DNA of 64,000 nucleotides from the IMG/VR virus record IMGVR_UViG_3300027747_004323. One strand, written 5' to 3'. Origin of the DNA: an uncultured virus (IMG/VR IMGVR_UViG_3300027747_004323) (Duplodnaviria; Heunggongvirae; Uroviricota; Caudoviricetes). This document shows, one piece after another, positions 31,051 to 46,421 of this stretch. Within the stretch, counting starts at the first letter, position 1. Each line of letters starts with the position of its first letter. Under the pieces are notes generated by a model that searched no databases, was not told the DNA's origin, and saw only the letters and a program-made list of their open reading frames with translations. The position numbers and the translations under genes were made by a program.

Positions 31051-31052
31051 GG

Positions 31053-31478
31053 CTAACCTGTAAATATCACGTCGGCGTATCTATTGACGACTACGTCACA
31101 AGATTGGAGGATCTTGATGCCGTTGAGATCCCTGTACTCTTCGTCATAGACGACCTCTGAGATGTCGGCATTCACGATAAGCTTTGCGCACTGCACGCAA
31201 GGTGAGTGCGTGAGGTACATGATCTTCTTGCGATTGAAGTTGTAGTCACACTTGACGAGTGCATTCACTTCAGCATGTATGAAACCACTCTGTCCTGGGT
31301 CCGCCGAATCGGGAACGTTAGGTCCTCCCCTGTAGTTTCCGTTGTATCCCAGTGAGAGGAGACGAGTGTTGTCGTCTGAGACGACGATCGCTCCCACCTT
31401 GAGACGAGGATCGTAGGACCTCTCGGCCACGGTTCGAGCGATCGACATCCAGGATTCGTGCCAGGACGGTCTACGCAT
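31053..31478 (-). CDS. dCMP deaminase
   Basis: KVGA, GYNG, HAEVNA, SPCVQC. Confidence 0.92.
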   Translation of the reverse strand: MRRPSWHESWMSIARTVAERSYDPRLKVGAIVVSDDNTRLLSLGYNGNYRGGPNVPDSADPGQSGFIHAEVNALVKCDYNFNRKKIMYLTHSPCVQCAKLIVNADISEVVYDEEYRDLNGIKILQSCDVVVNRYADVIFTG

Positions 31479-31479
31479 G

Positions 31480-32058
31480 TCAGTTCTCGTGGATCTTAGG
31501 ACGCAGGTCGATCGAGATGTGATGCGAGTAGCATCTCGGCTCATAGAGCTCTGCACCTCCCACCTCGATCTCTTCGCCGTTTGTCTGCTTCTTGTGTGTG
31601 TAGTGGGCGTCCCTGCCGCAGACTGTGCACACAGCAGTGCATTTCTCGACGTGAGTCGACCACACGAGCATCTTCTCGATCTCGTGAAAAGGCTTGCCCG
31701 AGTAAGACATTTCGAGCGAGGAGACGACGATGGTGAAACCGCTCTTGTAGAGCCAGATGAGGGACTCTGCGATGCCTGGAATCATGAAGGCCTCGTCGAC
31801 CGCGATGACGTGAGGATTCTCGTCGAGGTTCGTGAGATGCTCGAGGATGTCCGCACCCGACTTGATGCACACAGCGGGAACCTTCCAGCCACCGTGGGTG
31901 ACGACCTCACTAGGACTGTATCTGTCGTCGATCAGCGGCTTGAAGACGACGACTTTCTTGTGTTGATACTTGTATTTCTCGAGAGTTGAAAGGAGTCGCG
32001 ACGTCTTCGACCCAAACATCGGCCCAGTGTAAACGATGAACTCAGGATTGCTCAACAT
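31480..32058 (-). CDS. tdk: thymidine kinase
   Basis: GPMFGSKT, VDEA, AVCTVCG, VGGAELYEPRC. Confidence 0.93.
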   Translation of the reverse strand: MLSNPEFIVYTGPMFGSKTSRLLSTLEKYKYQHKKVVVFKPLIDDRYSPSEVVTHGGWKVPAVCIKSGADILEHLTNLDENPHVIAVDEAFMIPGIAESLIWLYKSGFTIVVSSLEMSYSGKPFHEIEKMLVWSTHVEKCTAVCTVCGRDAHYTHKKQTNGEEIEVGGAELYEPRCYSHHISIDLRPKIHEN

Positions 32059-32067
32059 TCTCTTACC

Positions 32068-33024
32068 TCACATGTCCTTGATCTTGTCCCAAGACTTCTC
32101 ATACCACTCGATGGTTCGATCGAGTCCGTCCCAAAACCGAACAAGCGGAACGTAACCGAGAACCGCTGTGGTCTTCGATATGTCTGCCTGTGTGTGCATC
32201 ACGTCTCCAGCACGCCACGGAGCTGTGTGGTGCTGGGCATAAGGATAGACTTCCTGGAGTTTTCCGAGCACCTCTGCGTTTGATGTCCTGTCGCCGCAGG
32301 CCACGTTGAGAGGTTCTGCGGCCAATGGACCGACGTGCTCGACTGCTCTCATGCAAGCATCGACGACGTTGTCGACGTAGCACATGTCCCGTGTCTGCGA
32401 GCCGTCTCCGTCCGATCGCATGGAGTCGCCCTTCTTGATCGCAGTCAACCATGCCGAGACCGCGGTCGAATAAGGCGAATTTCCTAGCTGATTGGGTCCG
32501 AAGACGTTGAAGAAGCGAAGGGCGACGGAATCAAGACCGTAGAGGTTGTAGTAGACCTTCATGTAGTCTTCGATGATCGACTTCTGGAGTGCGTAAGGTG
32601 ACTTTGGATCCTTGGGATACGTCGTCGGAGTCGGCATGAAGTCTGCACCGCCATATACAGAACTCGATGATGCGAAGACGAACCGTCTCGCGTTGCCGCG
32701 GCAGGCCTGCATGAGGCGCAACGTCTTCGTCACATTCGTCTCGTGTGTCTCAAGAGGAAACTCCACGGAATAGCTCACACGAGGCACAGCGGCCAAGTGA
32801 ACGACGGCGTCGAATTGCCCTGAGACGACAGCATGAAGCACGTTCGGTGCCGAGAAGTCGCTTACCAGGAAGTTGTCTGATTCGACGAATCGAGAGTCGA
32901 GAAACTCTTCGTGGCCGTTGCTCATGTCGTCCACGCCGAAGACATCCCAGCCTGATTCGAGGCATTTCTTCGTCAGGTTGCTGCCGATGAATCCCGCAGC
33001 ACCTGTGATGAGAACCTTAGTCAT
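32068..33024 (-). CDS. NAD-dependent NDP-sugar epimerase/dehydratase
   Basis: TGAAGFIG, HLAA, ASSSSVYG, YALQK, RFFNVFGP. Confidence 0.92.
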   Translation of the reverse strand: MTKVLITGAAGFIGSNLTKKCLESGWDVFGVDDMSNGHEEFLDSRFVESDNFLVSDFSAPNVLHAVVSGQFDAVVHLAAVPRVSYSVEFPLETHETNVTKTLRLMQACRGNARRFVFASSSSVYGGADFMPTPTTYPKDPKSPYALQKSIIEDYMKVYYNLYGLDSVALRFFNVFGPNQLGNSPYSTAVSAWLTAIKKGDSMRSDGDGSQTRDMCYVDNVVDACMRAVEHVGPLAAEPLNVACGDRTSNAEVLGKLQEVYPYAQHHTAPWRAGDVMHTQADISKTTAVLGYVPLVRFWDGLDRTIEWYEKSWDKIKDM

Positions 33025-33030
33025 GCGTCC

Positions 33031-33060
33031 ATTATAGGACGCATGCCTTCAAGAGTTCAC
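33031..33060 (-). promoter_or_regulatory. sigma70-like leaderless promoter
   Basis: GTGAAC-N18-TATAAT-N6-ATG. Confidence 0.7.
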
Positions 33061-33827
33061 CTCGTCTTGATCACGATTTCGACACCTTTGGGATCGGTGG
33101 TCAAAAAAGCCTTGAGGCGGTCGCCCTCGTAATCGATCATGACACCCTCATCTTCACTAGTGAGTTCTCCCTTGAGTGAGGACTCGAATCCCAGCTTCTT
33201 CATCACCTCGTCGCAGTACAAGGCAATCTGATCCAGCATGGCGAGCTGTTTCGATGGCACCAGGACCCTGACGTTGACAGAAGTCTTGCTCAGCTCTTCG
33301 ATGGTGACCTTTGATCCCTCAGACTCAAGGTCTTTCTTGATCGCGGAAGCGACGGCCATCTTGTCGGTGGGTGAAGGAGGTGCCGCAGTGACCTCCCCGC
33401 CCTTCATGACGGCGACGACCTTCTTTGCGAGAGCGCCCGCGTCGATCTTCTTCACTCTGCGGCCGGGTTCATAGTTCATCGGATTGAGGAATCCACCTAC
33501 CATGTCAAGGACGGCATCGTGGACGTAGTACTCGACCATGCTGAGCCATTCGTCCCTTCTGTCGACGGGGTCCTTGATGCCCCTCATCTCTGACTCGATG
33601 TTTGACCAAGCGTCCCACATCGCTCCGAAAACCGGACCGCCCTCGTAAGAAGTATCTGAAGCCTCGTCGACGAGGTCTTCCGGGGCCCCTGCGGCCGTGA
33701 GTGCTGCAGAGAACACATTACGAAACTTCATGAAGCTGTCGGGCGGGGAGGCAGCAGCCTTCGCGGCTTCGGCGATTTGCCTCTTGACAGAGGCACGAAT
33801 CATTCGACGGAGTTCGTTGAGAGTCAT
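33057..33827 (-). CDS. leader-motif hypothetical protein
   Basis: MTLNELRRMIRASVKRQIAE; ATACTTA 5 nt upstream. Confidence 0.7.
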   Translation of the reverse strand: MTLNELRRMIRASVKRQIAEAAKAAASPPDSFMKFRNVFSAALTAAGAPEDLVDEASDTSYEGGPVFGAMWDAWSNIESEMRGIKDPVDRRDEWLSMVEYYVHDAVLDMVGGFLNPMNYEPGRRVKKIDAGALAKKVVAVMKGGEVTAAPPSPTDKMAVASAIKKDLESEGSKVTIEELSKTSVNVRVLVPSKQLAMLDQIALYCDEVMKKLGFESSLKGELTSEDEGVMIDYEGDRLKAFLTTDPKGVEIVIKTR

Positions 33828-33842
33828 GCGTCTAAGTATTCT

Positions 33843-34838
33843 TCACTTCTTCCAGAAGTCATACATTCCCTTGGCGACCTCGTATTTCATCATCTTGACG
33901 GGACGTGGCGGCTGCTCCTTCGCCCAGACGAACATCTTCTCGACGAGGTCCTCAAAGTCTGTGTCGTCTACGAATCCCAGGTCTCTCTTCGCCTTTGTGT
34001 GGTCGCAGTAGGCGTGCTGCACCTCGTCACGAGGCTCGAGGTGGACTATCGCCACGTCGTGTCCCAATTTGGCCGCGACGCGTCGGAATCGAGAAGCCGC
34101 ATCGGCGATCGTCATGTGTGAATCGGCACCCATGTTGTACGTCTCACCGTCGCCGGCATTCATCAAGGTCTCAAAGGGCGCCATGTAGTACTTGATGTCT
34201 GAGAACGACCGCGTCTGTGAGCCATCACCGAAGACTGTGATGGGCTGACCCGACAATGTCTGTCTAATCCAGATGCCTAACACATTCCTGTATTTGTCCC
34301 AGATATTCTGGTGTACTCCAAAGACGTTGTGCGGACGCACGACAGTGTAGTTGAGACCGAAGAGCCTGTGGGCCTGCTTCAGGTCCAACTCCACAGCATA
34401 CTTTGCGATGCCGTAGGGATCTTCAGGCATCGGCACAAAGTCCTCGACGTAGGGCGGGTGATGATGGCTTCCGTAGACGTCCATGGACGACGTGAAGACA
34501 ATCTTCTTCGAGTCGTGATTGACGCACGCATTGATCACGTTTGCAGACCCCACCACGTTGTTCGAGTAGTTGAAGCTCCTGATGAAGGGACTGAGCCCCA
34601 CCGCAGCATAGGCAGCGAAGTGATAGACGTACTGGGGTCTTCGTGTCCGAAATGCCTCGTCGACCGCGGACGAATCGACGAGGTTCACCTCCAAGAAATC
34701 GAGTCGTTCGTCGAGGTTCTCTCTATAACCACCACTCAAGTCGTCGATGCCCGTCACCGTGTGACCGCGGTCGAGAAGGTGTCTCGAGAAATGACTTCCT
34801 AGTAGGCCTGCCACGCCTGTGATCAATACACTCGCCAT
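33843..34838 (-). CDS. NAD-dependent NDP-sugar epimerase/dehydratase
   Basis: TGVAGLLG, HFAA, TSSMDVYG, YGIAK, RPHNVFG. Confidence 0.92.
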   Translation of the reverse strand: MASVLITGVAGLLGSHFSRHLLDRGHTVTGIDDLSGGYRENLDERLDFLEVNLVDSSAVDEAFRTRRPQYVYHFAAYAAVGLSPFIRSFNYSNNVVGSANVINACVNHDSKKIVFTSSMDVYGSHHHPPYVEDFVPMPEDPYGIAKYAVELDLKQAHRLFGLNYTVVRPHNVFGVHQNIWDKYRNVLGIWIRQTLSGQPITVFGDGSQTRSFSDIKYYMAPFETLMNAGDGETYNMGADSHMTIADAASRFRRVAAKLGHDVAIVHLEPRDEVQHAYCDHTKAKRDLGFVDDTDFEDLVEKMFVWAKEQPPRPVKMMKYEVAKGMYDFWKK

Positions 34839-34847
34839 GATCCAGCA

Positions 34848-35753
34848 TTATACAGCATCACGACGCACGTGGAGGCTGTCGAACTGAACGACGAGTCTCA
34901 CTGAGTTGACAGCCCAGCCGAAGGTCCGAGGAATTTCGGTGGAAAGGTGGGCAAGGAATCGAAGGTCGAGTGTACCGTTCTTCACGGAGTCCGTGCTCCT
35001 CAGAAGACTGATGACCTTGAGGTCGCCATCACGAGGCAAGAAGTGTATCGAAGAGATGCACGTGTCGCTGTGGTAGTAGAACCGCCTCGAGTCGAGTCCT
35101 TGTGGCGCTCCATAGGGATTTTTCCCTGACATCTCGTCGTGGATCACTTCCTCGCACGACTTGAGGATGTCCAAGAAGTACTCGCCTTCGTGGGGATCGT
35201 TGAGGATGGAGGGATCCGTGTACTGAGGTGGGACGTCGAACTCCACGCGTGCCTGCACCTCTTGGTCCTTTGACAGGAAAGTACAGTGTCTAATCGTGTG
35301 ACCAAACACCCCCGGAGATTGTTCCGAATATTCCTGGATGTCCCTGCTGACTTCTCGTGCCTGGTCCGACAGGGAAGCGTCCCTCGAGAGGACGAGGACG
35401 TTGGGAAGTGCGATGATCTTCGAGACCTCTTCCTGGAAGATCCTGTAGAGTTTCAAGAGCGAAGCGTCGTCCTGGAACTCGTCGCCTCGTGAGCGTAGTC
35501 TCTCGAGGACGACGTTGACAGGAGGCATCAGGACGACGAGGAAGTTGTTGAGATCACAGAGCTCTTCGCGGAGGGCAGCTCGATGCTCCGCCTCAGGCCG
35601 TCCGTAGAGACGCGCATAGCACAGCATCGAGAGGAAGGACCGGTCTTGAATGTTGTACTTGAACTTCGTTTCCTTGTGCAGGGCTGAATAGAGCGAAGTC
35701 TTGCCGCTGCAGTCCGGTCCCTCTAGAATGACGTATTTGATCGGAATGTTCAT
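34848..35753 (-). CDS. dNMP kinase fused to a thymidylate synthase-fold (dCMP hydroxymethylase-like) domain
   Basis: P-loop EGPDCSGKT and DRS; C-terminal SRR...CISSIHF...RSTD...D...SLHV. Confidence 0.78.
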   Translation of the reverse strand: MNIPIKYVILEGPDCSGKTSLYSALHKETKFKYNIQDRSFLSMLCYARLYGRPEAEHRAALREELCDLNNFLVVLMPPVNVVLERLRSRGDEFQDDASLLKLYRIFQEEVSKIIALPNVLVLSRDASLSDQAREVSRDIQEYSEQSPGVFGHTIRHCTFLSKDQEVQARVEFDVPPQYTDPSILNDPHEGEYFLDILKSCEEVIHDEMSGKNPYGAPQGLDSRRFYYHSDTCISSIHFLPRDGDLKVISLLRSTDSVKNGTLDLRFLAHLSTEIPRTFGWAVNSVRLVVQFDSLHVRRDAV

Positions 35754-38026
35754 GCCATCTGCCTCATCTTGAAGATCGAAGTCGAGAAGCCCCACTGAGG
35801 ATCGTGTTGTGCCTTGCCTACCCACAGGGTGTAGGGTTTGATCTCCTCCTGCGGCGTGCCCCATACTCGAATCCACGCGATCCTAAACTCGTCGTCCATC
35901 GCTTTACAACGATAGAACGACTTTCCGTTCTTCGTCTTCTTCAGCTCGGCGGACGCCATGCAGAACCAGCCGATGCCCTCCGTGCCCGGCGGGATGTCGT
36001 GGAGGCGAGGCACTTCCTTCGACGCGACCTTCTCCATGATCTCGGGTGGAAAGAGGAGGTCTGCGTCGATCGTGGACGTGAGGTCGAAGCGTAGGTTGAT
36101 CTTCTCGTCACGAGTCCAGTCCTCCGTTTCTGCGAGCTCCTCGAGGAGGAAGTCGACGATGGGAATCACGGGTTCACCGGCCTTCGCCTTCTTCTTCAGT
36201 TGCGATGCAGTGAGACCGTAGAGGCCCTTTCGGAGGGTCTCGTAGTTCTTTTCCTCGGTGAGTGCGAGGAGGAGCTGCCGATGATTCGCGATGCGGCCGT
36301 ACTGGAAGTCCTCGAGGGACTCTAGGCCTTCGATCTGACACAGGGCGGAGAGCACCGTCTTGTTCACCTTGCTGTGTCTCCATTCGCCGGCGTCGTCGTA
36401 CAGCATCCCCTTGAGGTCCTTATACGGTCGGTTGACCATGATCTCCTCGACGGCGGCGTTTCCGATGCCCTTCACCGAACCGAGGGGCGGAACGAAGGCG
36501 TTGGCCTCGTCGGAGAAGTCCCACTGCTTGCCCGAGTAGTTGACGTCGTGCTTCGAGAAGCTGTATCCCAATGCCTTCACCTCGGAGATCACCTTGGAGA
36601 GCTCCTTGGGATTGGACGAGGCAGACTGCAGGATCGTGGCGAGCCAGTCCTTCTCGTAGTGGGTGTGGAGCCATGCCGCGTAGTAGGAGTCGATGGCATA
36701 GGACACGGAGTGGGACTTGTTGAAGCCGTAGAGCGAGAAGAACTCGATCTTGTCGAACAGCGCATTGGTGATGTCTTCCGAGATTCCGTGGATTTCTTTG
36801 GCGCCCTTCACGAACTTCTCGCGGAGCATCACCTTCTCGCCCGACTTCTTGTCGAGTGTGTCGAGTGACTTCTTCACGAGCGTCTTCCTCATCTGGTCGG
36901 ACTCGCCCGGTGAGAAACCGCCGAGCTCCACGGCGAGGCTCATGAACTGTTCCTGGAAGGCGATGAAGCCGCGGGTCACACCGAGCACCTTCTCGATGAG
37001 CGGATGGTCGTACTTGATGCCCTCGATGTTCTTACCGGCGTCGACGTACATATTGTGGACGTTCGCCTTGAGGGGACCGGGTCGGTAGATGGCAGTGATC
37101 GCCGCGAGCTCGTCGATCGTGTTGGGATTCGCCTGCATGCAGAACTTCCGGGCTCCGCTGGCAGTGAACTGGAAGACGCCGACGAAGCGACCTTCCTGGT
37201 ACACGTGCTTCCACACCGCGGGGTCGTCCTGCTTCACGTATCGACAGTTGAGGTGCTTGTCGAAGAACGCCTTGACGTCGAGGAACGTCGGATCGGGATT
37301 GCCCTGCTTCACGAGGATGCGTCGGATGCAGTTCTCGACGTCCTTGAGGAGGGTGAGTCCCAGGAAGTCGAACTTGAGGAAGCCGTTGTCCTCGAGGTTG
37401 CGGAAGTTCATGCCCTCGGTCCACGGAGTCTGAAGCTCGCCGCGGACGCCGATGATGGGCATCGTGGCGGACAACTCCTCGGGATCGGCGACGAGGACGC
37501 CGCCGGCGTGACGGCCCACGGATCGGTTCTGCATGAAGAGCGTGCTGATGTGGTCCTCGACCTCCGGGTACTTCTCCATGAAGGCCTTGTACTTCGGAGA
37601 GAACCTCATACAGTCCTCGTGCTTCAGGACGAAGACGGACTTCTCCTGGTCCTCGTCCCGGGCGAGAGGCTCGACCTCCGCTTGGAGCGGGCCTGTCACC
37701 TCATTCACCTCCTCGAACGGAATGCCGTAGATTTTTGAGATGTCCTTGACGAGGGACTTCAGCTTCAGGGTGTTGAAGTTGGACACGGGAATGACCGCGT
37801 CCTCACCGAAGAGATTTCGAGCTTCCTCGATCAACACGTCTCGATCTGCAGCATCAGAGTCGATATCGGGCCACGAAGTATTGTGTGTCAGTGCAAAGTC
37901 CTTGCCTACTGTTGACACAAAAAACGTATGATCATTAGCAACCTCGATGTCGACGTATTCTTCAGCTTTGTCGCTAAAGATGACTTCTTCGATCTCTACT
38001 TCTTCAAACTCGAGAGTTGACAACAA
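35750..38026 (-). CDS. dnaE: DNA polymerase III alpha, C-terminal half, preceded by C-intein
   Basis: DIEV...HTF...THN/T then PDIDSD, HAGG, KFDFLGL, GVFQF, RPGP, YGFNKSH; likely TTG start at 38026 with SD AAGGA (track start 38077). Confidence 0.92.
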   Translation of the reverse strand: MLSTLEFEEVEIEEVIFSDKAEEYVDIEVANDHTFFVSTVGKDFALTHNTSWPDIDSDAADRDVLIEEARNLFGEDAVIPVSNFNTLKLKSLVKDISKIYGIPFEEVNEVTGPLQAEVEPLARDEDQEKSVFVLKHEDCMRFSPKYKAFMEKYPEVEDHISTLFMQNRSVGRHAGGVLVADPEELSATMPIIGVRGELQTPWTEGMNFRNLEDNGFLKFDFLGLTLLKDVENCIRRILVKQGNPDPTFLDVKAFFDKHLNCRYVKQDDPAVWKHVYQEGRFVGVFQFTASGARKFCMQANPNTIDELAAITAIYRPGPLKANVHNMYVDAGKNIEGIKYDHPLIEKVLGVTRGFIAFQEQFMSLAVELGGFSPGESDQMRKTLVKKSLDTLDKKSGEKVMLREKFVKGAKEIHGISEDITNALFDKIEFFSLYGFNKSHSVSYAIDSYYAAWLHTHYEKDWLATILQSASSNPKELSKVISEVKALGYSFSKHDVNYSGKQWDFSDEANAFVPPLGSVKGIGNAAVEEIMVNRPYKDLKGMLYDDAGEWRHSKVNKTVLSALCQIEGLESLEDFQYGRIANHRQLLLALTEEKNYETLRKGLYGLTASQLKKKAKAGEPVIPIVDFLLEELAETEDWTRDEKINLRFDLTSTIDADLLFPPEIMEKVASKEVPRLHDIPPGTEGIGWFCMASAELKKTKNGKSFYRCKAMDDEFRIAWIRVWGTPQEEIKPYTLWVGKAQHDPQWGFSTSIFKMRQMA
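37880..38026 (-). other. split intein C-terminal fragment (about 49 aa)
   Basis: Block F EYVDIEVANDHTFFV, block G THN, +1 Thr. Confidence 0.88.
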
Positions 38027-38924
38027 GATTTTTTGTTCCTTTGTAGTTTCTGAATTCGAGATTTGGAATGACATCAAACAACTCCTGAGTCTTTAGGCTG
38101 TTATAGAAATCTTTCATATAGAGCACACGAATGTTCAATCCGTCTGCCTTTAGCACTTCGAGAGCAAGCAAATTCTTCTCAAAGGCATGATCTCTTCTTC
38201 CTGCTTTCAGCTCTACATACTCGTTAGTATCTGGATGAAAGAAGTCCGGTGTGTAGCTTACTTCTGTTTCAGCGACTTTTACGGAGAAGGTCTTGTGTTC
38301 GTAATGAACTTCAATTCCTACATGATTGCAGTAACGAAAGTAGTCAGCCTCGAGCGAACTTCTGAAGTAGATTCCTAAGTCAGAACGAACGCCAGATCGA
38401 CCCCTAGAATAGAGTTTGATCTCTCCGCTTGATTGAGCTGCATACTGACACTTGCGTCCACAAAATCTTACCACAGACGTAGTGTACTTTTCAAAATTAC
38501 TACCGCAGACTTTACATGGGACTATCACTCTTGTTGCAGTTCGACTTGCATCCCTGGCACATGGGAGTGAACAGTATTTACGGTTGCTGCCTTCGATTAC
38601 TTCGAAATTTGCGCCACATGAACTGCAAATCAGAGTGACGCGCTCTTTTTCGCTTGACTTAGCATACGACCGATTTTGGCATGCTCTCGAGCAATACTTC
38701 GATTGTTTCGCTAAACTGGGCGGTAACGTGTAGTCTCTTTCACAGTAGTTGCACTTGAGCGTCATTGATGAAATTGACTTTTCTCTCCTTTTTGCACCTT
38801 TGCATTCTTTCGAGCAGTACTTCTTGTTGCAAGAACTGAAGCCTCCCTGTGTATGGGTGAAGGTGACAACGAAGTCCTTGTTGCAATGTTTGCATGTGAG
38901 AGATTTCGTGCTTGTGTTTCCCAT
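38004..38924 (-). mobile_element. free-standing putative homing endonuclease (Zn-ribbon repeats plus PD-(D/E)XK domain)
   Basis: Four CxxC...(Y/F)CxxxC repeats, FRSSLE, YTPDF...VELKAG; AT-rich; lies between the intein halves. Confidence 0.8.
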
Positions 38925-38963: not shown

Positions 38964-39254
38964 TCACGGAGACTTCTTCTTGACGAAGAGCAGCTTGTCG
39001 CCCTTCTTGAGGTCGGTCGTCATAACTTCTTTCACTTCGCCAGCGCGACGGACGAGCCAGCGATGGTTTGGCGAGCATGAGAAATTCTCTCTCGAAGTCT
39101 TGATGACAGCATTGATGTCATGTCCTACATCATCTTCCTTGTCGATGACAGACTCATAAGTACCGCCATGCGTGAGGACCTTCTCTCCAAGGCCGAGGTC
39201 TTTGATGGGCTTGACTCCATTTTCTGTCAAGACAAGTGAGTCTTTCTGAAGACA
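38964..39254 (-). other. split intein N-terminal fragment (96 aa)
   Basis: Block A CLQKDSLVLT, block B CSPNHRW, ends ...DLKKGDKL...stop. Confidence 0.9.
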
Positions 39255-40730
39255 ACGGTGCCGACCGAGGAATCGGCTCCACAGGAGACCGTACGGAATC
39301 GGATCGATCTGGGTGATGCCGAGGAGGTAGTTGACGAGAGAACCGGGACCGCTGCCACGTCCGGGTCCGAAGAGGGTCCGCGTCTCGGCACGCTTGAAGA
39401 TCTTGTACATTGTCACGAAGTACGAGGCATGACCCAGGTACTTGATGTCGGACAGCTCGGACTTCGCTCGTTCGACGTACTCGGGCTTGTCCACCATTCC
39501 CTCGCGGACGAGTCCCTCCTTGACGAGGTCGGTGAGCTGCTGGAATGCGGTCCTCTCAGGAGTGTCGAGCTTCGGGAGCTTCGCCTTGACATCGACCCAG
39601 GTGTCCTCGCAGTTCTGCCAAGCGAGGTCGTGGGTCCGCTCGATCGCGTCGCGGACCTCCTCCTCAGCACCTCGGTAGAAGTCGTAGGAGTCGTACGACG
39701 ACTTGAACTCGTCCCACATCTGGGTGGCGTTCTTGGGATACAGCTCGCACTTCAGGTCCTCGAACTTGGGCAGCGCCGTCTGATCCAGCTTCGCACCCAT
39801 CCAGCCGAGCTTCTTGTAGAGCTCGCGGGCCTGCCATTTGGAGGGATCGGGATAGTGGGCATCGCAGGTGGCGATCAGCTTCACGCCGCTTCGTCGAGAC
39901 AGGTCGATGAGGTACTTGTTCACCACGTGCTGCTTCGGCAGCTTGTTGAACTGTAGCTCGAGGAAGAAGTTGTCACGACCGACCGCGTCGGTGAACCTGT
40001 CGGTGAGGTTCTGCAGCTCACTGATGATCTGATCGGATGTCTTACCGTACGCCTCGCCGCGGAGGATCGTGCCGCTGTAGATGCCGCCGAGGCACGCCGT
40101 CGACCAGATGATGCCCTTACCCCACTTTCGGAGGAGGTCGAAGTCGATGCGAGGATAGCGGTAGAAGCCGTCCTTGAAAGACGCCTTCACGAGGCGGTTG
40201 ATGTTCGCGAGACCCTCGGCTGTCTGGGCGACCGCGACAAGGTGGTATCGACGCTGCCAGTCGGGCTTCTCCTTGTAGTCGTCCGACTTGGTCTCTGCCT
40301 CGTCCTCGACGACGTGGCCTCCCGCCTCCTCTTCCTCTGCGACCTCGTCTGCGTCGACGTCCGTCCGGACCTTCGCCTTCTTCTCAGCTTCGGCCGCGGT
40401 CTTCGCGTCCTTGATCGACTGCTTGTGTGCTTCGTAGTCGAGCTTCCACTGTGCGAGCGAAGTAACAAAGTAGAACTCCACGCCGTAGAGCTGTCTGTAC
40501 TTCACGCCCTTCTTCTGCAGCTTCTTTGCCGCAGAATGTGCATGGGCGAGACCGTTGCCGTTGCCGTGGTCGGTGAGGGCCCACGCGTCCTGCCCTTGCG
40601 ACTCGGAGGTCACGAACTTCACGTGATCCTCGGGATACCCGAGGCCGTCGAATGTCGAAAATCCGCTGTGATTGTGGAAGGAAACGAACTTCTGGGGAGG
40701 GCGAATCAGATCGACGGGACGATTTGACAT
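38964..40730 (-). CDS. dnaE: DNA polymerase III alpha, N-terminal half (PHP domain) plus N-intein
   Basis: HNHSGFSTFDG, ALTDHG, GVEFY, TACLGG, DAHY, GPGRGS, GITQIDP, RFL. Confidence 0.93.
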   Translation of the reverse strand: MSNRPVDLIRPPQKFVSFHNHSGFSTFDGLGYPEDHVKFVTSESQGQDAWALTDHGNGNGLAHAHSAAKKLQKKGVKYRQLYGVEFYFVTSLAQWKLDYEAHKQSIKDAKTAAEAEKKAKVRTDVDADEVAEEEEAGGHVVEDEAETKSDDYKEKPDWQRRYHLVAVAQTAEGLANINRLVKASFKDGFYRYPRIDFDLLRKWGKGIIWSTACLGGIYSGTILRGEAYGKTSDQIISELQNLTDRFTDAVGRDNFFLELQFNKLPKQHVVNKYLIDLSRRSGVKLIATCDAHYPDPSKWQARELYKKLGWMGAKLDQTALPKFEDLKCELYPKNATQMWDEFKSSYDSYDFYRGAEEEVRDAIERTHDLAWQNCEDTWVDVKAKLPKLDTPERTAFQQLTDLVKEGLVREGMVDKPEYVERAKSELSDIKYLGHASYFVTMYKIFKRAETRTLFGPGRGSGPGSLVNYLLGITQIDPIPYGLLWSRFLGRHRCLQKDSLVLTENGVKPIKDLGLGEKVLTHGGTYESVIDKEDDVGHDINAVIKTSRENFSCSPNHRWLVRRAGEVKEVMTTDLKKGDKLLFVKKKSP

Positions 40731-40839: not shown

Positions 40840-41442
40840 TCAGACCCGGTAGCCCTTGTCCACAGCCAGCGTCTCTGCCTCTATGCCAGCAGCTTCGAGC
40901 TGATCGACGATGGCTTGTGCCTCCTCCTCTGAAGCGAAGGCACGAGACGAATTGTAGCCGGGGTTGGCGCTCGAAGCACCCACGAGCTTGAACTTGATGC
41001 CATTTTTCGCAGCAATTGCATCGAAGGTCTTCTTGGTCTTGTCCCACTCCTTCGCAGAAAGGCCAGAATAAGACGGCGGAAGTATGTGTCCGCTGAGGGC
41101 AACAACCCACTCTCTCGGGGCCGAAGAGAAAGAGTCTATGTATTCGAGGACCGCGGAGGTCATGTTGGCCTCGGTCGCTCCCTGGGAGATCCAGTCCGCC
41201 ATCCTGTCGACGATTGGATCGGTCTCTTTAGGGGGATACATGACGCCTGGGAGACCACGAAGATACGACCAGGCTTCAACGGCAGCGCCGTATGCATTGC
41301 CTGTCTTAAAGGCCTTGACGAACCCTGCGTTGGCCAATACCCTCTTGACGATCTGTGCACTGACGTCGGTTCCTTCGCGGAGGGCGACCTTCTGCACTTC
41401 TTCCTTGATGATTCTGCGAAGCTGACTGACTGTGATCTTCAT
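40840..41442 (-). CDS. leader-motif hypothetical protein
   Basis: MKITVSQLRRIIKEEVQKVALREG. Confidence 0.75.
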   Translation of the reverse strand: MKITVSQLRRIIKEEVQKVALREGTDVSAQIVKRVLANAGFVKAFKTGNAYGAAVEAWSYLRGLPGVMYPPKETDPIVDRMADWISQGATEANMTSAVLEYIDSFSSAPREWVVALSGHILPPSYSGLSAKEWDKTKKTFDAIAAKNGIKFKLVGASSANPGYNSSRAFASEEEAQAIVDQLEAAGIEAETLAVDKGYRV

Positions 41443-41485: not shown

Positions 41486-42478
41486 TCAGGCCGGAAAGTG
41501 CTGCAGCAGGTCCACTTTCTTTGCGGCTGCCTCGTCGAGGTACTTCAGCGGGTTGTAGTCCTCGGATCCCCTGATCCACTCCAGGGTCTCTCGAATACCC
41601 TGCGACAAATCAAGTTCTGGTTTCCACCCAAGCTTTTCCCTGATTTTCTGAGAGGACAATCGGTGGTTACCGAGGTAGTCCGTCTTGGGATGCCACACCA
41701 GCCGTCCGCTCGTGCCAGGGAGGTGGGCATCGACTTCGGACACGACCTCGGACGCGGGACGGGCAGTCTCCGCCGCAACGTTCCAGTCGGTTCCCCATCC
41801 CTGACCCATGGGATCTCGGCACACGACCTCGATCGCCTTGCAGAAGTCCGACACGTGGAGGTAGTCCTTCACCTTGGTGGGATCGAGGAACATGTCGATC
41901 GAAGGTCGACCTTTCAGGGAGGCATAGATCGACTTCGCGATGAGGGAGTTCATGTCACCGAGACCTCCGAAGGCGAAGAGGGGACGCACGATCGTCCATC
42001 GATTCGCCATCGCGGTGACGATCTGCTCGGCCGCGAGCTTCTGGACGCCGTAATATGTCCGCGGGCACTTGTCAGAGGCTTCCGTGATCCACTCGTCCTG
42101 GTATTTCGGAGTATCGTAGATCACCGTCGTGCCGAGGTAGCAGACAGCCGCCTTGGCCCTGTTCGCAGCCCGGACGATGTTGTAGGTGCCTTGCACGTTG
42201 GAAAGCACAGCTTCCTGAGGATCGAGCGCGACGACGTCTGTACCTACGACGGCCGCATTGTGCACGACGACGTCGATGTCGTTACCGTAGAGAACGTTGT
42301 ACCATGCATCTTCTGAGTTCTGCCAGATGCATGCCTCCCCCGTCTTCGGAACCTTCTTGGGTTCTGCTGCGTCGGAGAAGAGCTCACCGTCAGTGACGAC
42401 CTCGTGCTTACGAGACTCGAGGACGACCTTGAGGTTGCGTGAGATCAGCCCGTTTTGGCCCGTGATGTAGAACTTCAT
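41486..42478 (-). CDS. divergent NAD-dependent NDP-sugar epimerase/dehydratase
   Basis: TGQNGLIS, HNAA, SNVQGT, YGVQK, KDYLHVSD. Confidence 0.85.
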   Translation of the reverse strand: MKFYITGQNGLISRNLKVVLESRKHEVVTDGELFSDAAEPKKVPKTGEACIWQNSEDAWYNVLYGNDIDVVVHNAAVVGTDVVALDPQEAVLSNVQGTYNIVRAANRAKAAVCYLGTTVIYDTPKYQDEWITEASDKCPRTYYGVQKLAAEQIVTAMANRWTIVRPLFAFGGLGDMNSLIAKSIYASLKGRPSIDMFLDPTKVKDYLHVSDFCKAIEVVCRDPMGQGWGTDWNVAAETARPASEVVSEVDAHLPGTSGRLVWHPKTDYLGNHRLSSQKIREKLGWKPELDLSQGIRETLEWIRGSEDYNPLKYLDEAAAKKVDLLQHFPA

Positions 42479-42496
42479 TGTACCTCCATCATAAAC

Positions 42497-42530
42497 GGCT
42501 CGGGCGGCCATTTTCACAGCCGCCCGAGCC
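42497..42530. terminator. GC-rich intergenic hairpin
   Basis: GGCTCGGGCGGC...GCCGCCCGAGCC perfect 12-bp stem. Confidence 0.55.
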
Positions 42531-42539
42531 GAAGCTATC

Positions 42540-42995
42540 TCACTCAATTTCCTTGTCGTACGGTTCGTAGAGCATCTTTCCTGCGGCCTTGCTGCGATCG
42601 AGATAATCCTCGAGCTCTTCGAATGAAGTACACACGCGTGCACCTGATCTACTCAACATGAGGTTGAATTTTGCTCCAGCTGGGAGTCCGGCGCAGAAGT
42701 AGATGATGTGCTTGTCGAAGGCTGTTGCATATCCGCACTCCATGATAGTGCCCAAGTCCTTATCGCGAGTGTTGACGACAAGGAAGTCAGATTCGCGGAT
42801 GTGTTTCAAATTACCCTGATAAGTCGCATCCTGAACCTCACGGGAAGCATTTGGTGGGCAAATGAAGATTCGTCGTGGAGACGCCATGTCAATCCAGTCC
42901 TTACGTGCCTCCATGATTTGTTCGAGTCTGGTGAGCTCGGCGTCTTGAACGGGGTTGAACCAGCCTGCGGCGAGGTACATCTTTTTGCGATTCAT
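42540..42995 (-). CDS. nucleoside 2-deoxyribosyltransferase / nucleotide N-glycosidase family
   Basis: YLAAGWF, DLGTIMECGYA, NLML. Confidence 0.85.
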   Translation of the reverse strand: MNRKKMYLAAGWFNPVQDAELTRLEQIMEARKDWIDMASPRRIFICPPNASREVQDATYQGNLKHIRESDFLVVNTRDKDLGTIMECGYATAFDKHIIYFCAGLPAGAKFNLMLSRSGARVCTSFEELEDYLDRSKAAGKMLYEPYDKEIE

Positions 42996-43885
42996 CTTTG
43001 ATTTGCCTTTCTAGTTGTGTATTCCAATAGTAGCATGTCTTTATCAATTGAACAACGTGACTGTTTACGCACGTTGTCAACTGCAGGAATGAATTCTAAG
43101 TTAGAAATGTCACCAATGACTTCTGGTGGCAGGCCTTGCCTAAAGCCTTCGGCAACAGAGAACTTGTGATCTAGGTGATACTCACCTCGCTTATCGTGGT
43201 TGTCGAGTTGATCTATCGGTTGCATACGAGTGAAATGATCAACTCTTCTTCTATAGTCCTGAAATTCAGGTAGATCATCGACGTACTGTTGCCAAGTTTT
43301 TCCATGCGTCTTGAGCAGCTTCTTGTCCATAGAAGAAGAGATAAACGCTGGCGATAAGACGATGTTGTGCACTCCAAACTTTTCGACACAAGTTTCTTCT
43401 GCTCGAGATCGTAGAATAGGAGATTCGAAAGTCGATGGGCCACCCCATCTATCAGTCATCGTTTGGCGCCGCCGGGCAAGCACTTCGGGATTTTCAATCG
43501 GAGACTTATAGCCGTATCTCTTCAAATTTGTCTCTTCGATCTTGGCCCTAAACTCTTCCGTCTGAGAGTAAACATCGACTCCATAACGCTCGCGAGTAGT
43601 CTTCTTCGACTTCTCTTTGGTTGAGTCAAGCTCAAATGTGCTAGCAACACCATACTTTCTAATGTTGTTATTTTTGCGTTTTTCTTTTATCTCATCGCAA
43701 GACATTGGAAAGTCTGTCCCGTGCTTCTCTAAACTCTTCTTTCGACGAAGCTCGTATGTGATACCGCCTTTCTTCTGGGCAAGGTAGATGCACTCTTTCG
43801 AGCAAAAGAAGAAGCCAGATTTGTTGCTAAGCGGATTCTTTGGCACGAATATCGTCTTGCACTGCGAGCAGATTTTCTCTTTCAT
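42992..43885 (-). mobile_element. HNH homing-endonuclease-like protein with KYG repeats
   Basis: Zn ribbon, repeated (K/R)YG units, YHLDH...SNL...N; AT-rich. Confidence 0.75.
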
Positions 43886-44006
43886 CGCCAATCCTCTCTC
43901 GAATGATCTCGGCGACGAATTGACTCATCAGTAATCCATGTTGAGCACAATACACCTTCAGCGCTTTGTGAGTCTCTTCGTCCACCGAGATCTTCGATTG
44001 TTTCAT
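43827..44006 (-). CDS. small ribbon-helix-helix regulator
   Basis: 59 aa translated by hand: MKQSKISVDEETHKALKVYCAQHGLLMSQFVAEIIRE... Confidence 0.65.
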   Translation of the reverse strand: MKQSKISVDEETHKALKVYCAQHGLLMSQFVAEIIRERIGDERENLLAVQDDIRAKESA

Positions 44007-44042
44007 GGCTATACGTATCTAAGCAAGTACTAAAGTACTTAG

Positions 44043-45026
44043 TTACTTACCTACCTTCCAATCGTTGTGCTGCCTCTTGATGGCATTCCAGTCTGTCATG
44101 TCTGCGTTCCACAGCTCGGTGAATCGCTTCTGTGGTCCGTTGCCGTGGGTGCCGTTGATGTCCTCGCGGGTCGACTGATAGATCGTGTCCTGTGGATGGA
44201 ACTCGAACGTGTCGTTCTTCGGGATGGGCCAGTAGAGGTTCGTGCCTCGCGACACGAACTTGTCACCTTCCTTGACGCGGAAGGTCTTGATGTAGTGCAT
44301 GTCGGGCTTGTTGAAGTCGATCACGGACGTGAACTCGGGGATCACCTTCGCCACCTCGACTGCCATGCGAGACGCGAGGAGGTTGTCGGCAGCCGGCTGG
44401 ATCTGGGTGTCCATTCGCTGGTAGATGAAGCCGATGAGCTCCTTGAGTGGGAGGCGCATGTAGTAGAACGACGTCATGCACTTCGGGAGGATGAGTCGGG
44501 CATCCATCATCGACACGACCTTCGAATCCGTCATGTCGGCATAGAGCTGCTTCGAGTCCTCGACGAGCTTCTTCCATCGAGCGTGGAACTCAGGAGAGTT
44601 CTGGACGGGCTCGGGAATCACAGCGTCGTCGTCTCGGAGGTCACGGTCGCCCGTGCACTGGGCGGCGAAGGTGCCGGCACGATGGCGGATGATGTGTGTC
44701 ACCTCCTGAAACGAGAGGCCGCTGAGACGGAAAGTGAAGCCGAGGCACTCCATGGGAGCGGGAAGCGTGCGGCCGCCGAACACGTCCTCGAGGTTCTTCG
44801 ACAGCTCACGCTGGGTGACGCCGCTGGTGGGATCGATGTCCGGGCGGTCTGCCCACGTCGCCTTGACGTAGTGCCACGCGACGTTCCAGGCCTGCTGACG
44901 CGTGGGAGCGTCGACTAGCTCCACCTTGAGGGCATCGAGGTTGTTGTGGAACTGGGTCTTCGGTTCTTGACCGAACTTGAGGACCATGGGAAGCTCAATG
45001 GGTTGAAGATCACGATTGATGGGCAT
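44043..45026 (-). CDS. divergent ThyX-fold (flavin-dependent thymidylate synthase-like) protein
   Basis: FTFRLSGLS...THIIRHRAGTFAAQ, DARLILP, QRMDTQIQ; C-terminal extension. Confidence 0.78.
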   Translation of the reverse strand: MPINRDLQPIELPMVLKFGQEPKTQFHNNLDALKVELVDAPTRQQAWNVAWHYVKATWADRPDIDPTSGVTQRELSKNLEDVFGGRTLPAPMECLGFTFRLSGLSFQEVTHIIRHRAGTFAAQCTGDRDLRDDDAVIPEPVQNSPEFHARWKKLVEDSKQLYADMTDSKVVSMMDARLILPKCMTSFYYMRLPLKELIGFIYQRMDTQIQPAADNLLASRMAVEVAKVIPEFTSVIDFNKPDMHYIKTFRVKEGDKFVSRGTNLYWPIPKNDTFEFHPQDTIYQSTREDINGTHGNGPQKRFTELWNADMTDWNAIKRQHNDWKVGK

Positions 45027-45102
45027 TCTTACCTCTGTGTTTGAATTGATGCAGACTCTTGTATCCTAAACAGACAAGTCGTTTCTTTGCATCGTCGGGA
45101 CG

Positions 45103-46044
45103 TCAAATGACGTAATCGACGAAACTGATGGGGTCGCTGCCCTCTGGGACATACACGACGTTCTTCATTCCCTCGACCTCGGCGTTGTAAGTCTTTTCGG
45201 GAACGATCACAGGCACTCCGTGTTTCGCGTATTCCGCTGCGTGCTTCGCAGAATCATCGACGGCGAAATACTTGCCGGTGGAGTAGTAGGGTTGGTCGGT
45301 GAGCCACACGTATTTCTCAGGCGTGAATGTCACGCCGTCGGCCGCGATGTCGTGCCTCGAAAGCCAGGAGTACGTGTCGTAGAAGGCGGTGAGATTGGAG
45401 GCAGGACGTGCAGTGACGATCTGGATCCAGTATCCTCTGTCCTTGAGGTGCCTCAGGAGACCCGTGTACTTTTCGTTGCGTTCGAGCAGGAGAAATCCGT
45501 GTGTGTCGATGAAGGTCTTGAAGAGGACCTCGTTGTTGAGTCCGCTCTTCTTCAGTTCTTCTGTGGCATAATACTGTTTGCTCTTGGGATCGAGAAAGCA
45601 ACCCGTCGTTTCGGTCACCCATCCACAGAATGAAGACCTGAACTCGGCGAGGACGTCGTCCATGTCGAACAGGGCGACAGGCTGTCCGGCCCACTTCTTT
45701 GTGGAAAGCTCGTGCCTGTAGTGGAGGAAGTCGTCCTTCTGCGACAAGGCGGCCTCGAAAGTGGAGGCGCCGATTCCCCAGAGGTTCAACATCGCGAGGA
45801 TGTAACGGTATGCGTCGACGGACTTGTAGAGTATCTTCTGCACGTCGACGGGATGCTTGACACCTCGATGATCCTTGTAGTTGACGCCCTCAACGATTCC
45901 GCTTGCTTCGGCGTGAAGTGCAAGAACGAACGTCTTGAGAAGCTCTTGCTTCTGCCAGTCGTCCAGCTTCTCAGGATCGAAGAAGATGTCTGAGAAGGCC
46001 TTCTGACGCCCTAGGGCTTCGTGCAGCTTCGACCAGTCGTTCAT
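45103..46044 (-). CDS. dimeric dUTPase/MazG-like domain fused to HAD 5'(3')-nucleotidase
   Basis: N-terminal YKDHR...SVDAYRY; HAD motifs FDMDDV, TAR, K, VDDS. Confidence 0.78.
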   Translation of the reverse strand: MNDWSKLHEALGRQKAFSDIFFDPEKLDDWQKQELLKTFVLALHAEASGIVEGVNYKDHRGVKHPVDVQKILYKSVDAYRYILAMLNLWGIGASTFEAALSQKDDFLHYRHELSTKKWAGQPVALFDMDDVLAEFRSSFCGWVTETTGCFLDPKSKQYYATEELKKSGLNNEVLFKTFIDTHGFLLLERNEKYTGLLRHLKDRGYWIQIVTARPASNLTAFYDTYSWLSRHDIAADGVTFTPEKYVWLTDQPYYSTGKYFAVDDSAKHAAEYAKHGVPVIVPEKTYNAEVEGMKNVVYVPEGSDPISFVDYVI

Positions 46045-46421
46045 CAATAGTCCTTCTTGATTCGATCGTTGATGATCTTGTCCTTCTTGAGATAGGCTTC
46101 GAACAGCTCATCCGCCGTGATTCCCAGCATGATGGGCACCGCGAGAAAGAAGTTGAACGCATCCACGTACTCCTCGAGGAATGCCTCCTGATCGAAGTCT
46201 TTCACCTCTGTCGCACGATGCGGCTTCCAGTTCTTCAGGTGCTGAAGCGCCTCGAACATCTCCTCGACGCCCTTCAGGACGTTGTCGCGCACTGCGATCT
46301 GACCCTCCTTCGAGGTGATGTCGACGGGCCACTTCTGCAACACGGCGGGCCTCGCAGCAGCGAGGTCTTTCATGAACTTCTCTCGAAGCTCCAGCATTTT
46401 CGATAGACGGTCTTCTTGCAT
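46044..46421 (-). CDS. all-alpha dimeric dUTPase/dCTPase (T4 gp56-like)
   Basis: EEMFE...WKPHR...EEYVDAFNF. Confidence 0.8.
   Translation of the reverse strand: MQEDRLSKMLELREKFMKDLAAARPAVLQKWPVDITSKEGQIAVRDNVLKGVEEMFEALQHLKNWKPHRATEVKDFDQEAFLEEYVDAFNFFLAVPIMLGITADELFEAYLKKDKIINDRIKKDY

Follow-up and report, generated by a model that had tools for sequence, protein, structure and literature searches.

Does an uncultured phage alter one of the pyrimidines of its DNA before replication, and if so, which one? The question is raised by a block of genes around dnaE, the gene for a family C DNA polymerase, in a stretch of 64,000 nucleotides from an uncultured Caudoviricetes virus (IMG/VR record IMGVR_UViG_3300027747_004323), which was analysed as a whole and is called the window here. 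An earlier note, made from the letters of the window alone, had proposed that this block (31053 to 46421) encodes a new route to a modified and possibly glycosylated dC triphosphate. Our analysis upholds several parts of that proposal, namely a conserved gene set, a domain with a thymidylate synthase (TS) fold and a cytosine-type Asp, and a separate pair of genes, thyX and tmk, for thymidylate; the glycosylation part is weak. The reading we prefer, with a probability of about one half, is that the block is a pre-replicative module for pyrimidine-nucleotide remodelling, i.e. for base modification, and that it is centred on cytosine.

A kinase-fused minimal thymidylate synthase fold and a rewired ThyX

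At the centre of this reading is a fusion protein encoded at 34848..35753 on the minus strand, with a likely start at the Met at 35753 (301 amino acids, aa) and recognized from structure models and residue conservation. Its AlphaFold (AF2) model has a predicted local distance difference test score (pLDDT) of 93.9. Judging by this model, residues 1-145 are a P-loop kinase domain of the deoxynucleoside monophosphate (dNMP)/deoxynucleoside type, with YorR (3kb2, Z 14.2), a mycoplasma deoxyadenosine kinase (Z 13.6), and thymidylate kinases (Z ~12.5) among its matches. The C-terminal domain (158 residues, 144-301; hereafter miniTS) was also modelled alone, with a pLDDT of 90.5, and compared with 48,161 chains. 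The top 7 matches all belong to the TS superfamily (Z 8.9-10.8, 135-146 residues aligned), and the next chain, an unrelated one, has a Z of 5.5; as modelled, the domain has a TS fold. Specifically, the matches include the flavin-dependent dCMP monooxygenase 9iqc (Z 10.8; root-mean-square deviation 3.3 over 146 aligned residues), ThyA 3ix6 (Z 10.7), MilA (Z 9.3), and T4 dCMP hydroxymethylase (Z 8.9), and the first Foldseek match is 9iqu (E 2.6e-6). Because 9iqc ties with an ordinary ThyA, the fold alone does not choose a TS subfamily.

In all 27 sequences of the family that were compared, R223, R224, C232, R252, S253, T254, D255, D263, and H295 are invariant, and the spacing of R252 (+20), S253 (+21), D255 (+23), and D263 (+31) from C232 equals that of R166, S167, D169, and N177 from C146 in ThyA. 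The ThyA numbering and the meaning of these residues are taken from excerpts of Lee et al. (2026, PMC13326640), which also underlie every other statement credited to that paper here. There, Asp at N177 gives a preference for dCMP over dUMP, Asp or Glu at L143 accompanies hydroxymethyl products, and Asn at D169 is the mark of 5-hydroxy-dCMP synthases. In miniTS, both the N177 position (D263) and the D169 position (D255) are Asp in 27 of 27 sequences. As placed by sequence alignment, the putative L143 position (C-3), which is Asp or Glu in the hydroxymethyl type, holds an invariant Ser (Ser229), and the next residue (C-2) is mostly Asp. The phosphate-binding Arg residues are kept as well. The model, the Cys nucleophile, and the invariant D263 bear out the earlier description of this protein as a kinase joined to a TS-fold domain whose Asp is of the cytosine type. 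Since Asp is kept at the D169 position, we infer that miniTS is not a flavin 5-hydroxylase by the published rule, which is extended here to a strongly reduced domain.

The flavin-dependent 5-hydroxy-dCMP synthases are TS-fold enzymes published in 2025-26 (RB69 gp48, DLP3 gp80, and HY126 AfhB; structures 9iqc and 9iqu), and they need a cognate dNMP kinase (PMC13326640); in the window, a kinase is fused to miniTS. The domain shares with them the Cys nucleophile and the change of N177 to Asp, and they include its best structural match, but it lacks D169N (Asp255 in 27/27). The same holds for the comparison with the nine metaviromic TS homologues of that study, which were chosen for D169N, a change absent in the window family (PMC13326640). 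Unlike the arabinosyl/hexosyl-5-hydroxycytosine pathway, no arabinose-5-phosphate isomerase, AfhE/AfhF-type gene, or DNA glycosyltransferase was seen here.

The fusion family comprises 379 full-length protein clusters, all of ~300 aa and all uncultured, with 42-66% identity in the best 120 matches, and a tblastn search of cultured phages with the fusion gave no match. In the literature, we found no paper describing the fusion, the rewired ThyX treated below, or the module. To this extent the earlier remark that the gene combination is not recognised as a characterised pathway holds, but the 5-hydroxy-dCMP synthases now provide a close precedent.

The block also encodes a ThyX paralogue of 327 aa (44043..45026, minus strand; PF02511, E 1.9e-16). 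It scores above the Pfam Thy1 cut-off (60.9 bits vs 24.8), yet reaches only 32.5 bits with TIGR02170, less than the equivalog cut-off of 87.9. Aligned to Thermotoga maritima ThyX (TM0449), with which it shares the Thy1 family, the paralogue keeps the RHR and two further nucleotide-binding Arg (equivalents of R147 and R174), and the Arg that contacts uracil O4 in the T. maritima enzyme is kept. By contrast, the motif Ser (Ser88 in T. maritima) is an invariant Cys124 (motif region RHRAGTFAAQCTGDR), the SxRY motif is absent, 'HETPFEH' has become 'LPAPMEC', and flavin- and folate-site residues are altered. A C-terminal extension of ~100 residues relative to TM0449 is present as well. We refer to this protein as the rewired ThyX.

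Both lost motifs are found in the canonical ThyX of the window ('HETPFE' and 'S.N..S.RY'; 58039..58725, minus strand; TIGR02170, 96.9 bits vs 87.9). Together with the adjoining tmk (57449..58042, minus strand; PF02223), its family membership and normal motifs identify it as the ordinary dTMP/dTDP supply, in agreement with the earlier view that 57449-58725 covers dTTP. The paralogue and a canonical ThyX occur together in 5 of 5 records tested. Database matches to the paralogue number 1003 protein clusters at E <=0.001, the weak end of which may include ordinary ThyX; the best 120 are 79-93% identical, against 42-66% for the best 120 of the fusion, which places the paralogue among the most constrained proteins of the region. 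The ESM Atlas holds only its own clusters, which are virus-labelled, and no structure; it is by these cluster labels that the paralogue, unlike TM0449, is viral only.

The NDT-family protein (nucleoside 2-deoxyribosyltransferase, 151 aa; 42540..42995, minus strand; PF05014, E 6.9e-13, 49.2 bits vs 28.8) has true NDTs as its closest solved sequences, with nearly full-length matches to 6evs (E 3.5e-4) and 1f8x (E 6e-4). DNPH1 chains match more weakly (E 0.05-0.5) and over residues 59-114 only. The catalytic Glu is kept, 'DLGTIMECGYA' being aligned to 'DVGLGMELGYA' of 1f8x (motif D-x-G-x-x-x-E-x-G-Y-A), and Y7, G11-W12-F13, D80, E86, N111, and Y146 are invariant in 17/17 sequences. By these matches the protein appears to be a true nucleoside deoxyribosyltransferase and not a hydrolase of the MilB/BlsM type, and the alternative label of N-glycosidase given to it before is not retained, as nucleotide hydrolases (DNPH1) match it less well than true NDTs do. 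A complex prediction for the rewired ThyX and the NDT, run without controls, scored 0.00 where the mark was 0.32, and it speaks neither for nor against an interaction.

Four further nucleotide enzymes complete the set, all on the minus strand. The first is a MazG/dimeric-dUTPase-like all-alpha NTP pyrophosphatase of 132 aa (46044..46442; PF08761 dUTPase_2, 26.7 bits vs cut-off 22.9; phrog_12184, E 1.3e-18), which we presume to be linked to the gp56 family and treat as a candidate orthologue only. The second (45103..46047; PF06941, 25.8 bits vs 24.8) fuses an all-alpha pyrophosphatase (residues ~1-115) to a HAD 5'(3')-deoxyribonucleotidase (NT5C, 123-293). Residues 56-111 of this fusion align with residues 71-127 of the MazG-like protein at 32% identity (E 4e-5), a similarity that marks its N-terminal domain as a paralogue of its neighbour. 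A phmmer search of solved structures with the rewired ThyX, the MazG-like protein, and the pyrophosphatase::HAD fusion gave nothing useful. The other two are a TK1-type thymidine kinase (TK; 31480..32058; PF00265, E 1.4e-39; NF003296, 148 bits, below the cut-off of 183) and a dCMP deaminase with the zinc motifs HAE and PCxxC (31053..31556; PF00383, E 7e-21; phrog_174, E 9e-48).

Conservation among relatives and a second lineage

Linkage was assessed in 80 loci kept out of 111 IMG/VR viral contigs with the ThyX paralogue (56-91% identity), and the counts given here refer to informative loci only. The NDT gene follows the paralogue in all 71 loci and the MazG-like gene lies upstream of it in all 63, while the pyrophosphatase::HAD fusion is found in 61 of 71 and the kinase::miniTS fusion follows dnaE in 17 of 19. 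The gene set is therefore conserved in related phages, as the earlier note had suggested be checked. In 11 loci retrieved with the kinase::miniTS fusion the gene order is that of the window, and TK lies downstream in relatives whose flank extends that far. Among ten larger records, the fusion is present in the 6 with sufficient contig; the other 4 end a few kb past the ThyX gene.

The tightest pair, ThyX paralogue and NDT, has a counterpart in nucleoside-antibiotic pathways. MilA/MilB and BcmA/BcmB each consist of a C5 hydroxymethylase and an NDT-fold N-glycosidase. The window resembles them in that a C5-pyrimidine enzyme is tightly paired with an NDT-fold protein, but differs from MilA/MilB in that the partner has a ThyX rather than a TS fold, the NDT is nearer to true transferases, and the pair lies in a phage replication region.

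The module finds its strongest support in a second, independent lineage, represented by Geobacillus phage GR1 (OK896991.1; 79 kb), an HK97-type siphovirus available in culture. GR1 has a cassette at ~23.9-42.2 kb around a DnaE that is 20% identical to that of the window. In a tblastn search of cultured phages, the ThyX paralogue of GR1 shows 47% identity over 93% of the length, whereas the other 19 records matching the paralogue have <31% identity and cover at most 56% of the query. GR1 also encodes an NDT (38% identity, E 1e-28), a separate 145-aa kinase (33% identity to the kinase domain of the fusion, E 1e-12), and, directly after its ThyX paralogue, a separate 151-aa miniTS that is annotated as hypothetical (hhalign probability 94.4%, E 9.5e-8, 99 columns). 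The cassette further includes an HD protein of the YfbR 5'-deoxynucleotidase family, which matches a dATP triphosphohydrolase PHROG too (E 4e-37), an alpha-glucosyltransferase-family gene (phrog_2888, E 6e-53), a nitroreductase-family protein, a dUTPase_2-family protein, and a thymidine kinase. The last two have no pairwise similarity to the MazG-like protein and TK of the window and count as functional analogues only. GR1 thus differs from the window in having kinase and miniTS separate, an HD instead of a HAD nucleotidase, and no canonical ThyX or ThyA.

It also differs in a diagnostic residue. GR1-like elements of Bacillaceae encode 61 members of the stand-alone miniTS family. All 12 that were aligned have the motif 'QRSSN', whose Asn falls at position D169, and the family keeps the Cys and the Asp at the N177 position; among cultured phages, tblastn with the GR1 miniTS found GR1 alone. 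As Asn at D169 is the published synthase signature, GR1 is predicted to make 5-hydroxy-dCMP and, probably, to glycosylate it.

Three points follow for the window. The separation of kinase and miniTS in GR1 and their fusion in the window suggest, by the Rosetta-stone argument, that the two work together. That the gene set persists in phages whose structural modules are unrelated and whose polymerases are distant speaks for a functional unit. Finally, the alpha-glucosyltransferase-family and nitroreductase-family genes of the GR1 cassette point to DNA base modification as its purpose.

What the module may make

What is demonstrated are the folds of the domains, their conserved residues, and the gene linkage; we infer the remaining steps as follows. 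MazG-like enzymes would hydrolyse a canonical dNTP, likeliest dCTP, and miniTS would attach a one-carbon group, or one like it, to C5 of dCMP. The fused kinase would then move the modified nucleotide towards the triphosphate, which DnaE would incorporate, with dCMP deaminase and the ordinary ThyX and Tmk maintaining dTTP. Our best guess for the product is a 5-hydroxymethyl or 5-methyl group, favoured because Asp is kept at position 169 and because no dihydrofolate reductase was seen in the open reading frame (ORF) annotation of G003, a complete relative. A second branch, at the nucleoside level, is suggested by the joint presence of a true-type NDT, a 5'-deoxynucleotidase domain, and TK; together with the rewired ThyX, these may turn a dNMP into a nucleoside, exchange its base, and re-phosphorylate it.

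Cytosine replacement in phage T4 (gp56, gp42, gp1, Cd, Tk, and alpha/beta-glucosyltransferases) shares with this scheme the roles of an NTP pyrophosphatase, a dCMP-type TS-fold enzyme, a dNMP kinase, a dCMP deaminase, and a thymidine kinase, and the likeness extends to Gp23, portal, and S77 protease genes in G003. Unlike T4, however, the window has a TS-fold enzyme of 158 residues that is fused to a kinase and lies outside the TS sequence models, a family C polymerase, and, in addition, a rewired ThyX, an NDT, and a pyrophosphatase::nucleotidase fusion, and no DNA glycosyltransferase was found. The kind of system, pre-replicative pyrimidine replacement, is a known one, and its enzymes appear to be new.

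Several observations weigh against a cytosine-centred modification module. The miniTS domain is ~70-90 residues shorter than a normal TS, so that cofactor binding and catalysis are only predicted, and it has no match to the TS model PF00303 (Pfam, E <=0.01; none in G001, the virus record covering the window, or in G003 and GR1 either), and a search of PDB sequences with the profile of its family gave nothing at E <=10. The kept Arg of the uracil-O4 type in the rewired ThyX fits a uracil-type rather than a cytosine substrate. No other ThyX or ThyA was found in GR1, so the rewired ThyX may yet function as a thymidylate synthase, and the excerpted part of the GR1 paper (PMC10237291) contains nothing on DNA modification. 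Plain salvage would account for the nucleotidase and TK just as well. Moreover, the entire region, with its genes for superoxide dismutase (SOD), a nitrilase-like protein, and pterin-4a-carbinolamine dehydratase, has the same gene order in the relatives from the aquatic clade, so that synteny within this clade is largely inheritance and weak evidence for coupling. Gaps in the module hold genes for Fpg/Nei, DnaJ/DnaK, peptidoglycan hydrolases, methyltransferases, and GMP reductase.

Of the alternatives, ordinary salvage and pool balancing with no non-canonical base survives best, and we regard it as unlikely. Here, dNTPs and dNMPs of the host would be degraded to nucleosides, NDT would turn surplus deoxynucleosides into dU/dT, TK would re-phosphorylate these, the deaminase and the two ThyX proteins would make dTMP, and miniTS would be a dCMP-binding or regulatory module of the kinase. 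A salvage role exists for each enzyme class present, the NDT is of the true transferase type, and TK, dCMP deaminase, ribonucleotide reductase, ThyX, and Tmk are all encoded, in a region that serves replication and metabolism in general and has taken up unrelated insertions; in GR1, the rewired ThyX is the sole gene of the ThyX/ThyA type. Yet the invariance of the Cys, the Arg set, and the cytosine-type Asp of miniTS (27/27) would be needless for a mere binding domain. The rewired ThyX has neither the SxRY nor the His motif of a working ThyX and is nonetheless strongly conserved, a normal ThyX accompanies it in every record tested, and the cassette of GR1 includes a gene of a DNA alpha-glucosyltransferase family, all of which speaks against salvage.

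Doubtful, too, is a modified uracil or thymine as the main product, an idea that may coexist with cytosine modification as its second branch. The rewired ThyX would turn dUMP from the deaminase into 5-hydroxymethyl-dUMP or similar, partly replacing T, by a flavin reaction stopped at the exocyclic-methylene stage, and NDT, nucleotidase, and TK would process the matching nucleosides. The kept nucleotide contacts of the rewired ThyX (RHR, R147, and R174) agree with this, as does the ThyX-NDT pair as the tightest linkage of the region. NT5C-type nucleotidases and TK1-type kinases, moreover, prefer dU/dT nucleotides. By contrast, T is still made, since the phage retains a canonical ThyX and Tmk, the Asp of miniTS at N177 indicates cytosine, and the altered flavin- and folate-site residues make flavin chemistry in the rewired ThyX uncertain.

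A bolder version, which we hold to be rather improbable, would have a widespread clade of jumbo phages from aquatic habitats, and independently of it the GR1-like phages of Bacillaceae, put an undescribed base in the place of a canonical pyrimidine, partly via a nucleoside route in which a nucleotidase, base exchange by the deoxyribosyltransferase, and a kinase would act in turn. It would start, with equally low probability, from two enzymes without a characterised member, a minimal TS fold of ~150 residues and a ThyX with a rebuilt flavin/folate site. In a still bolder sub-variant, miniTS would keep no more of the folate site than its pterin-binding Asp and could use a reduced pterin and O2, which could explain the pterin-4a-carbinolamine dehydratase encoded a few kb downstream in the aquatic clade. 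If true, the nucleoside route would be a third way to modified DNA bases, beside nucleotide-pool synthesis and post-replicative modification.

Returning to the cytosine-centred module, its interest lies in the starting enzymes. To our knowledge, every known pyrimidine pathway starts from a full-size thymidylate-synthase homologue, and the module would add two others, a kinase-fused minimal TS fold and a rewired ThyX. Base modifications decide the fate of phages against restriction enzymes and CRISPR, and they are a source of enzymes for nucleic-acid chemistry. The module is also common, as judged by the 111 IMG/VR contigs and the 1003 ThyX-paralogue and 379 fusion protein clusters, mostly from uncultured freshwater and marine jumbo phages, and GR1, as a cultured carrier of the unfused version, opens the question to a bench test.

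The glycosylation proposed earlier would have relied on three extended short-chain dehydrogenase/reductase (SDR) epimerases, all on the minus strand: GalE/TviC-like SDR1 (318 aa; 32068..33024; PF01370, E 2.8e-52), epimerase-like SDR2 (331 aa; 33843..34838; E 3.5e-50), and epimerase/reductase-like SDR3 (330 aa from the likely Met; 41486..42478; E 4.1e-28). They meet PF01370 only and reach no NCBIfam equivalog cut-off (TviC 153 vs 760, GalE 149 and 140 vs 262, RmlB 93 vs 365), with TviC and GalE as the best matches of SDR1, far under the cut-offs. In 33 of 40 loci, SDR3 is placed between NDT and dnaE. The interval from the fusion to TK holds SDR1 in 9 of 11 loci and SDR2 in 1, and in 2 loci it is free of SDRs; SDR2 occurs in 4 of the 11 loci closest by the fusion search. 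On these counts, SDR3 is a frequent yet dispensable neighbour of NDT, and SDR1 and SDR2 occupy a variable slot.

A Pfam scan of 69 window ORFs, out of 92 of at least 50 aa, revealed no glycosyltransferase family, just as the earlier note had observed. The wider search it had called for found none in 34 ORFs from the rest of G001, with ~32% of the genome in hand, nor among 48 unassigned ORFs in the module gaps of 15 relatives. Similarly, none of the 9 aquatic-clade records searched has the alpha-glucosyltransferase family phrog_2888, GR1 serving as the positive control. In G003, 7 glycosyltransferases, 4 further SDRs, a GDP-mannose dehydratase, sugar kinases, and nucleotidyltransferases form a glycan island at ~125-150 kb, beside baseplate genes and ~100 kb from the module at ~17-29 kb. 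The island is similar to jumbo phage and cyanophage surface-glycan clusters with 1-4 epimerase paralogues (PMC7824862, from an excerpt). Most likely, by their distribution, the three epimerases are accessory sugar-nucleotide genes in variable slots and not pathway steps.

That they instead make an NDP-sugar that is placed on modified cytosine is the least probable of the readings, since SDR1 and SDR2 are frequently lacking, some loci are without any SDR, no glycosyltransferase turned up near the module or phrog_2888 in the relatives, those of G003 lie with their SDRs in a remote island, and no epimerase is annotated among 87 features of GR1 at 16.7-79.4 kb (35 around the cassette and 52 in 41-79 kb), notwithstanding the position of SDR3, the alpha-glucosyltransferase-family gene of GR1, a UDPGP-family gene in the window (11035-12096), and the phages known to have glycosylated 5-hydroxy- and 5-hydroxymethyl-cytosines (PMC13326640).

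Gene block, split dnaE, and neighbouring genes

ORF, Pfam, and PHROGs scans place all genes of the block on the minus strand, with transcription running from 46442 to 31053. All nucleotide and epimerase genes named in the earlier note are found where it had put them and co-oriented. Its list had, however, overlooked that dnaE is in two pieces, as well as a DUF7487 endonuclease and two unassigned ORFs.

The N-terminal piece of DnaE (38964..40730, minus strand; PHP domain and start of Pol III alpha; PF02811 and PF07733) has an extein that ends in '...GRHR' and is followed by an N-intein, CLQKDSLVLTENG, starting with Cys ('GRHR|CLQKDSLV...'). The C-terminal piece (35750..38077, minus strand; PF17657, PF07733, and PF14579) opens with a C-intein, '...VANDHTFFVSTVGKDFALTHN', that ends in 'THN' and precedes the extein 'TSWPDIDSD'. 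The Hint_2 match is weak (E 0.0094). The extein pieces of ~492 and ~709 aa sum to ~1200, compared with single ORFs of ~1170-1194 aa in relatives. A Cys-start N-intein, a C-intein with a His-Asn end and a following nucleophile, and exteins that sum to an intact homologue identify a split intein; with the free-standing endonuclease ORF of 306 aa between the pieces (38004..38924, minus strand; phrog_1271 HNH endonuclease, E 7e-15; weak PF05367), dnaE has the organization of a fractured gene. In distant relatives, homologues of this endonuclease (41-45% identity) are located elsewhere, namely after SDR3.

The DUF7487 homing endonuclease gene (42992..43891, minus strand; PF24308, E 2.4e-24; phrog_3339) splits the ThyX paralogue from NDT, which are otherwise adjacent or overlapping, and few relatives share the insertion; by this distribution it is a mobile insertion and not a pathway member. 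A second DUF7487 homing endonuclease is encoded between recA and a gp32-like gene (G001, L003:6497-7453).

The block arrangement is not an assembly artefact, because a metagenome contig from a separate study (2022) is colinear with the window over 31001-44525, with 71 differences and 0 gaps. Alignment of four metagenome runs to the window revealed colinearity only. In run X5, one contig joins 36731 to 40561, skipping 3829 bases, which is not a multiple of three, with a shorter side of 20 bases; this low-confidence joint is probably from a related phage or a chance join.

G001 is a 103.7-kb IMG/VR virus record that covers 99% of the window and has an estimated completeness of 32%. Sequences holding the window come from freshwater and aquatic metagenomes, and all 20 runs listed are metagenome contigs, none of them recorded as RNA. 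G003 (284 kb) has a T4-like capsid (Gp23), a portal, an S77 prohead protease, and baseplate genes. From these holders and the T4-like structural genes of G003, the phage is identified as an uncultured freshwater jumbo myovirus. Megablast of the whole block against cultured phages gave no match, and the closest cultured DnaE sequences are 26% identical to that of the window.

An actin-like protein (Volactin PF25216, E 8.8e-64) is encoded beyond the window, between a 5'-3' exonuclease and recA (G001, L003:3629-4633), and GR1 likewise encodes an actin-like protein. The Volactin-family match had prompted the idea of a haloarchaeal host, which was dropped since the holders are all freshwater or aquatic and the relatives are structurally T4-like.

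The two unassigned ORFs of the block, of 200 aa (40840..41442, minus strand; N-terminal tag MKIT..QLRRIIKEEV) and 256 aa (33057..33827, minus strand; related tag), have no family match and, by tblastn, no match in the 11 relative loci. The tag, M[KR][IL]T..QLRRIIKEE[VIL], is found at the N-terminus of the ORFs at 14532-15209, 33057-33827, 40840-41442, 47427-48089, and 48563-48808 and of 3 ORFs in G003, all otherwise unrelated. In T4, targeting tags direct proteins to the capsid. Given the T4-like relatives and the S77 prohead protease of G003, the tag may, by analogy, be a capsid-targeting sequence that is cut after an I-x-E motif and marks injected internal proteins.

Downstream of the block (25580-30782) lie genes for an Fe/Mn SOD with an N-terminal extension (30045-30782), a nitrilase/CN-hydrolase (25979-26731), and a pterin-4a-carbinolamine dehydratase (25580-25966), all kept there in the closest relatives. 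The last of these is odd for a phage and might be linked to pterin or flavin chemistry of the module. The UDPGP-family nucleotidyltransferase at 11035-12096 (PF01704, E 2.5e-22) adjoins a NUDIX hydrolase (pair 11035-12726), ~20 kb from the module, and is by its family a possible NDP-sugar source.

At 4367-8794, a DUF444/SpoVR/PrkA trio (stress kinase system of the YeaH-YcgB-YeaG type) is encoded, likewise in G003. G003 also carries a 346-aa adenylosuccinate-synthetase homologue (L027:12731-13771), a GMP-reductase/IMPDH-family gene (L029:13517-14581), and a small HD protein (L026:16988-17482); we take the short PurA homologue and the HD protein to be reminiscent of the PurZ/DatZ set of 2-aminoadenine phages.

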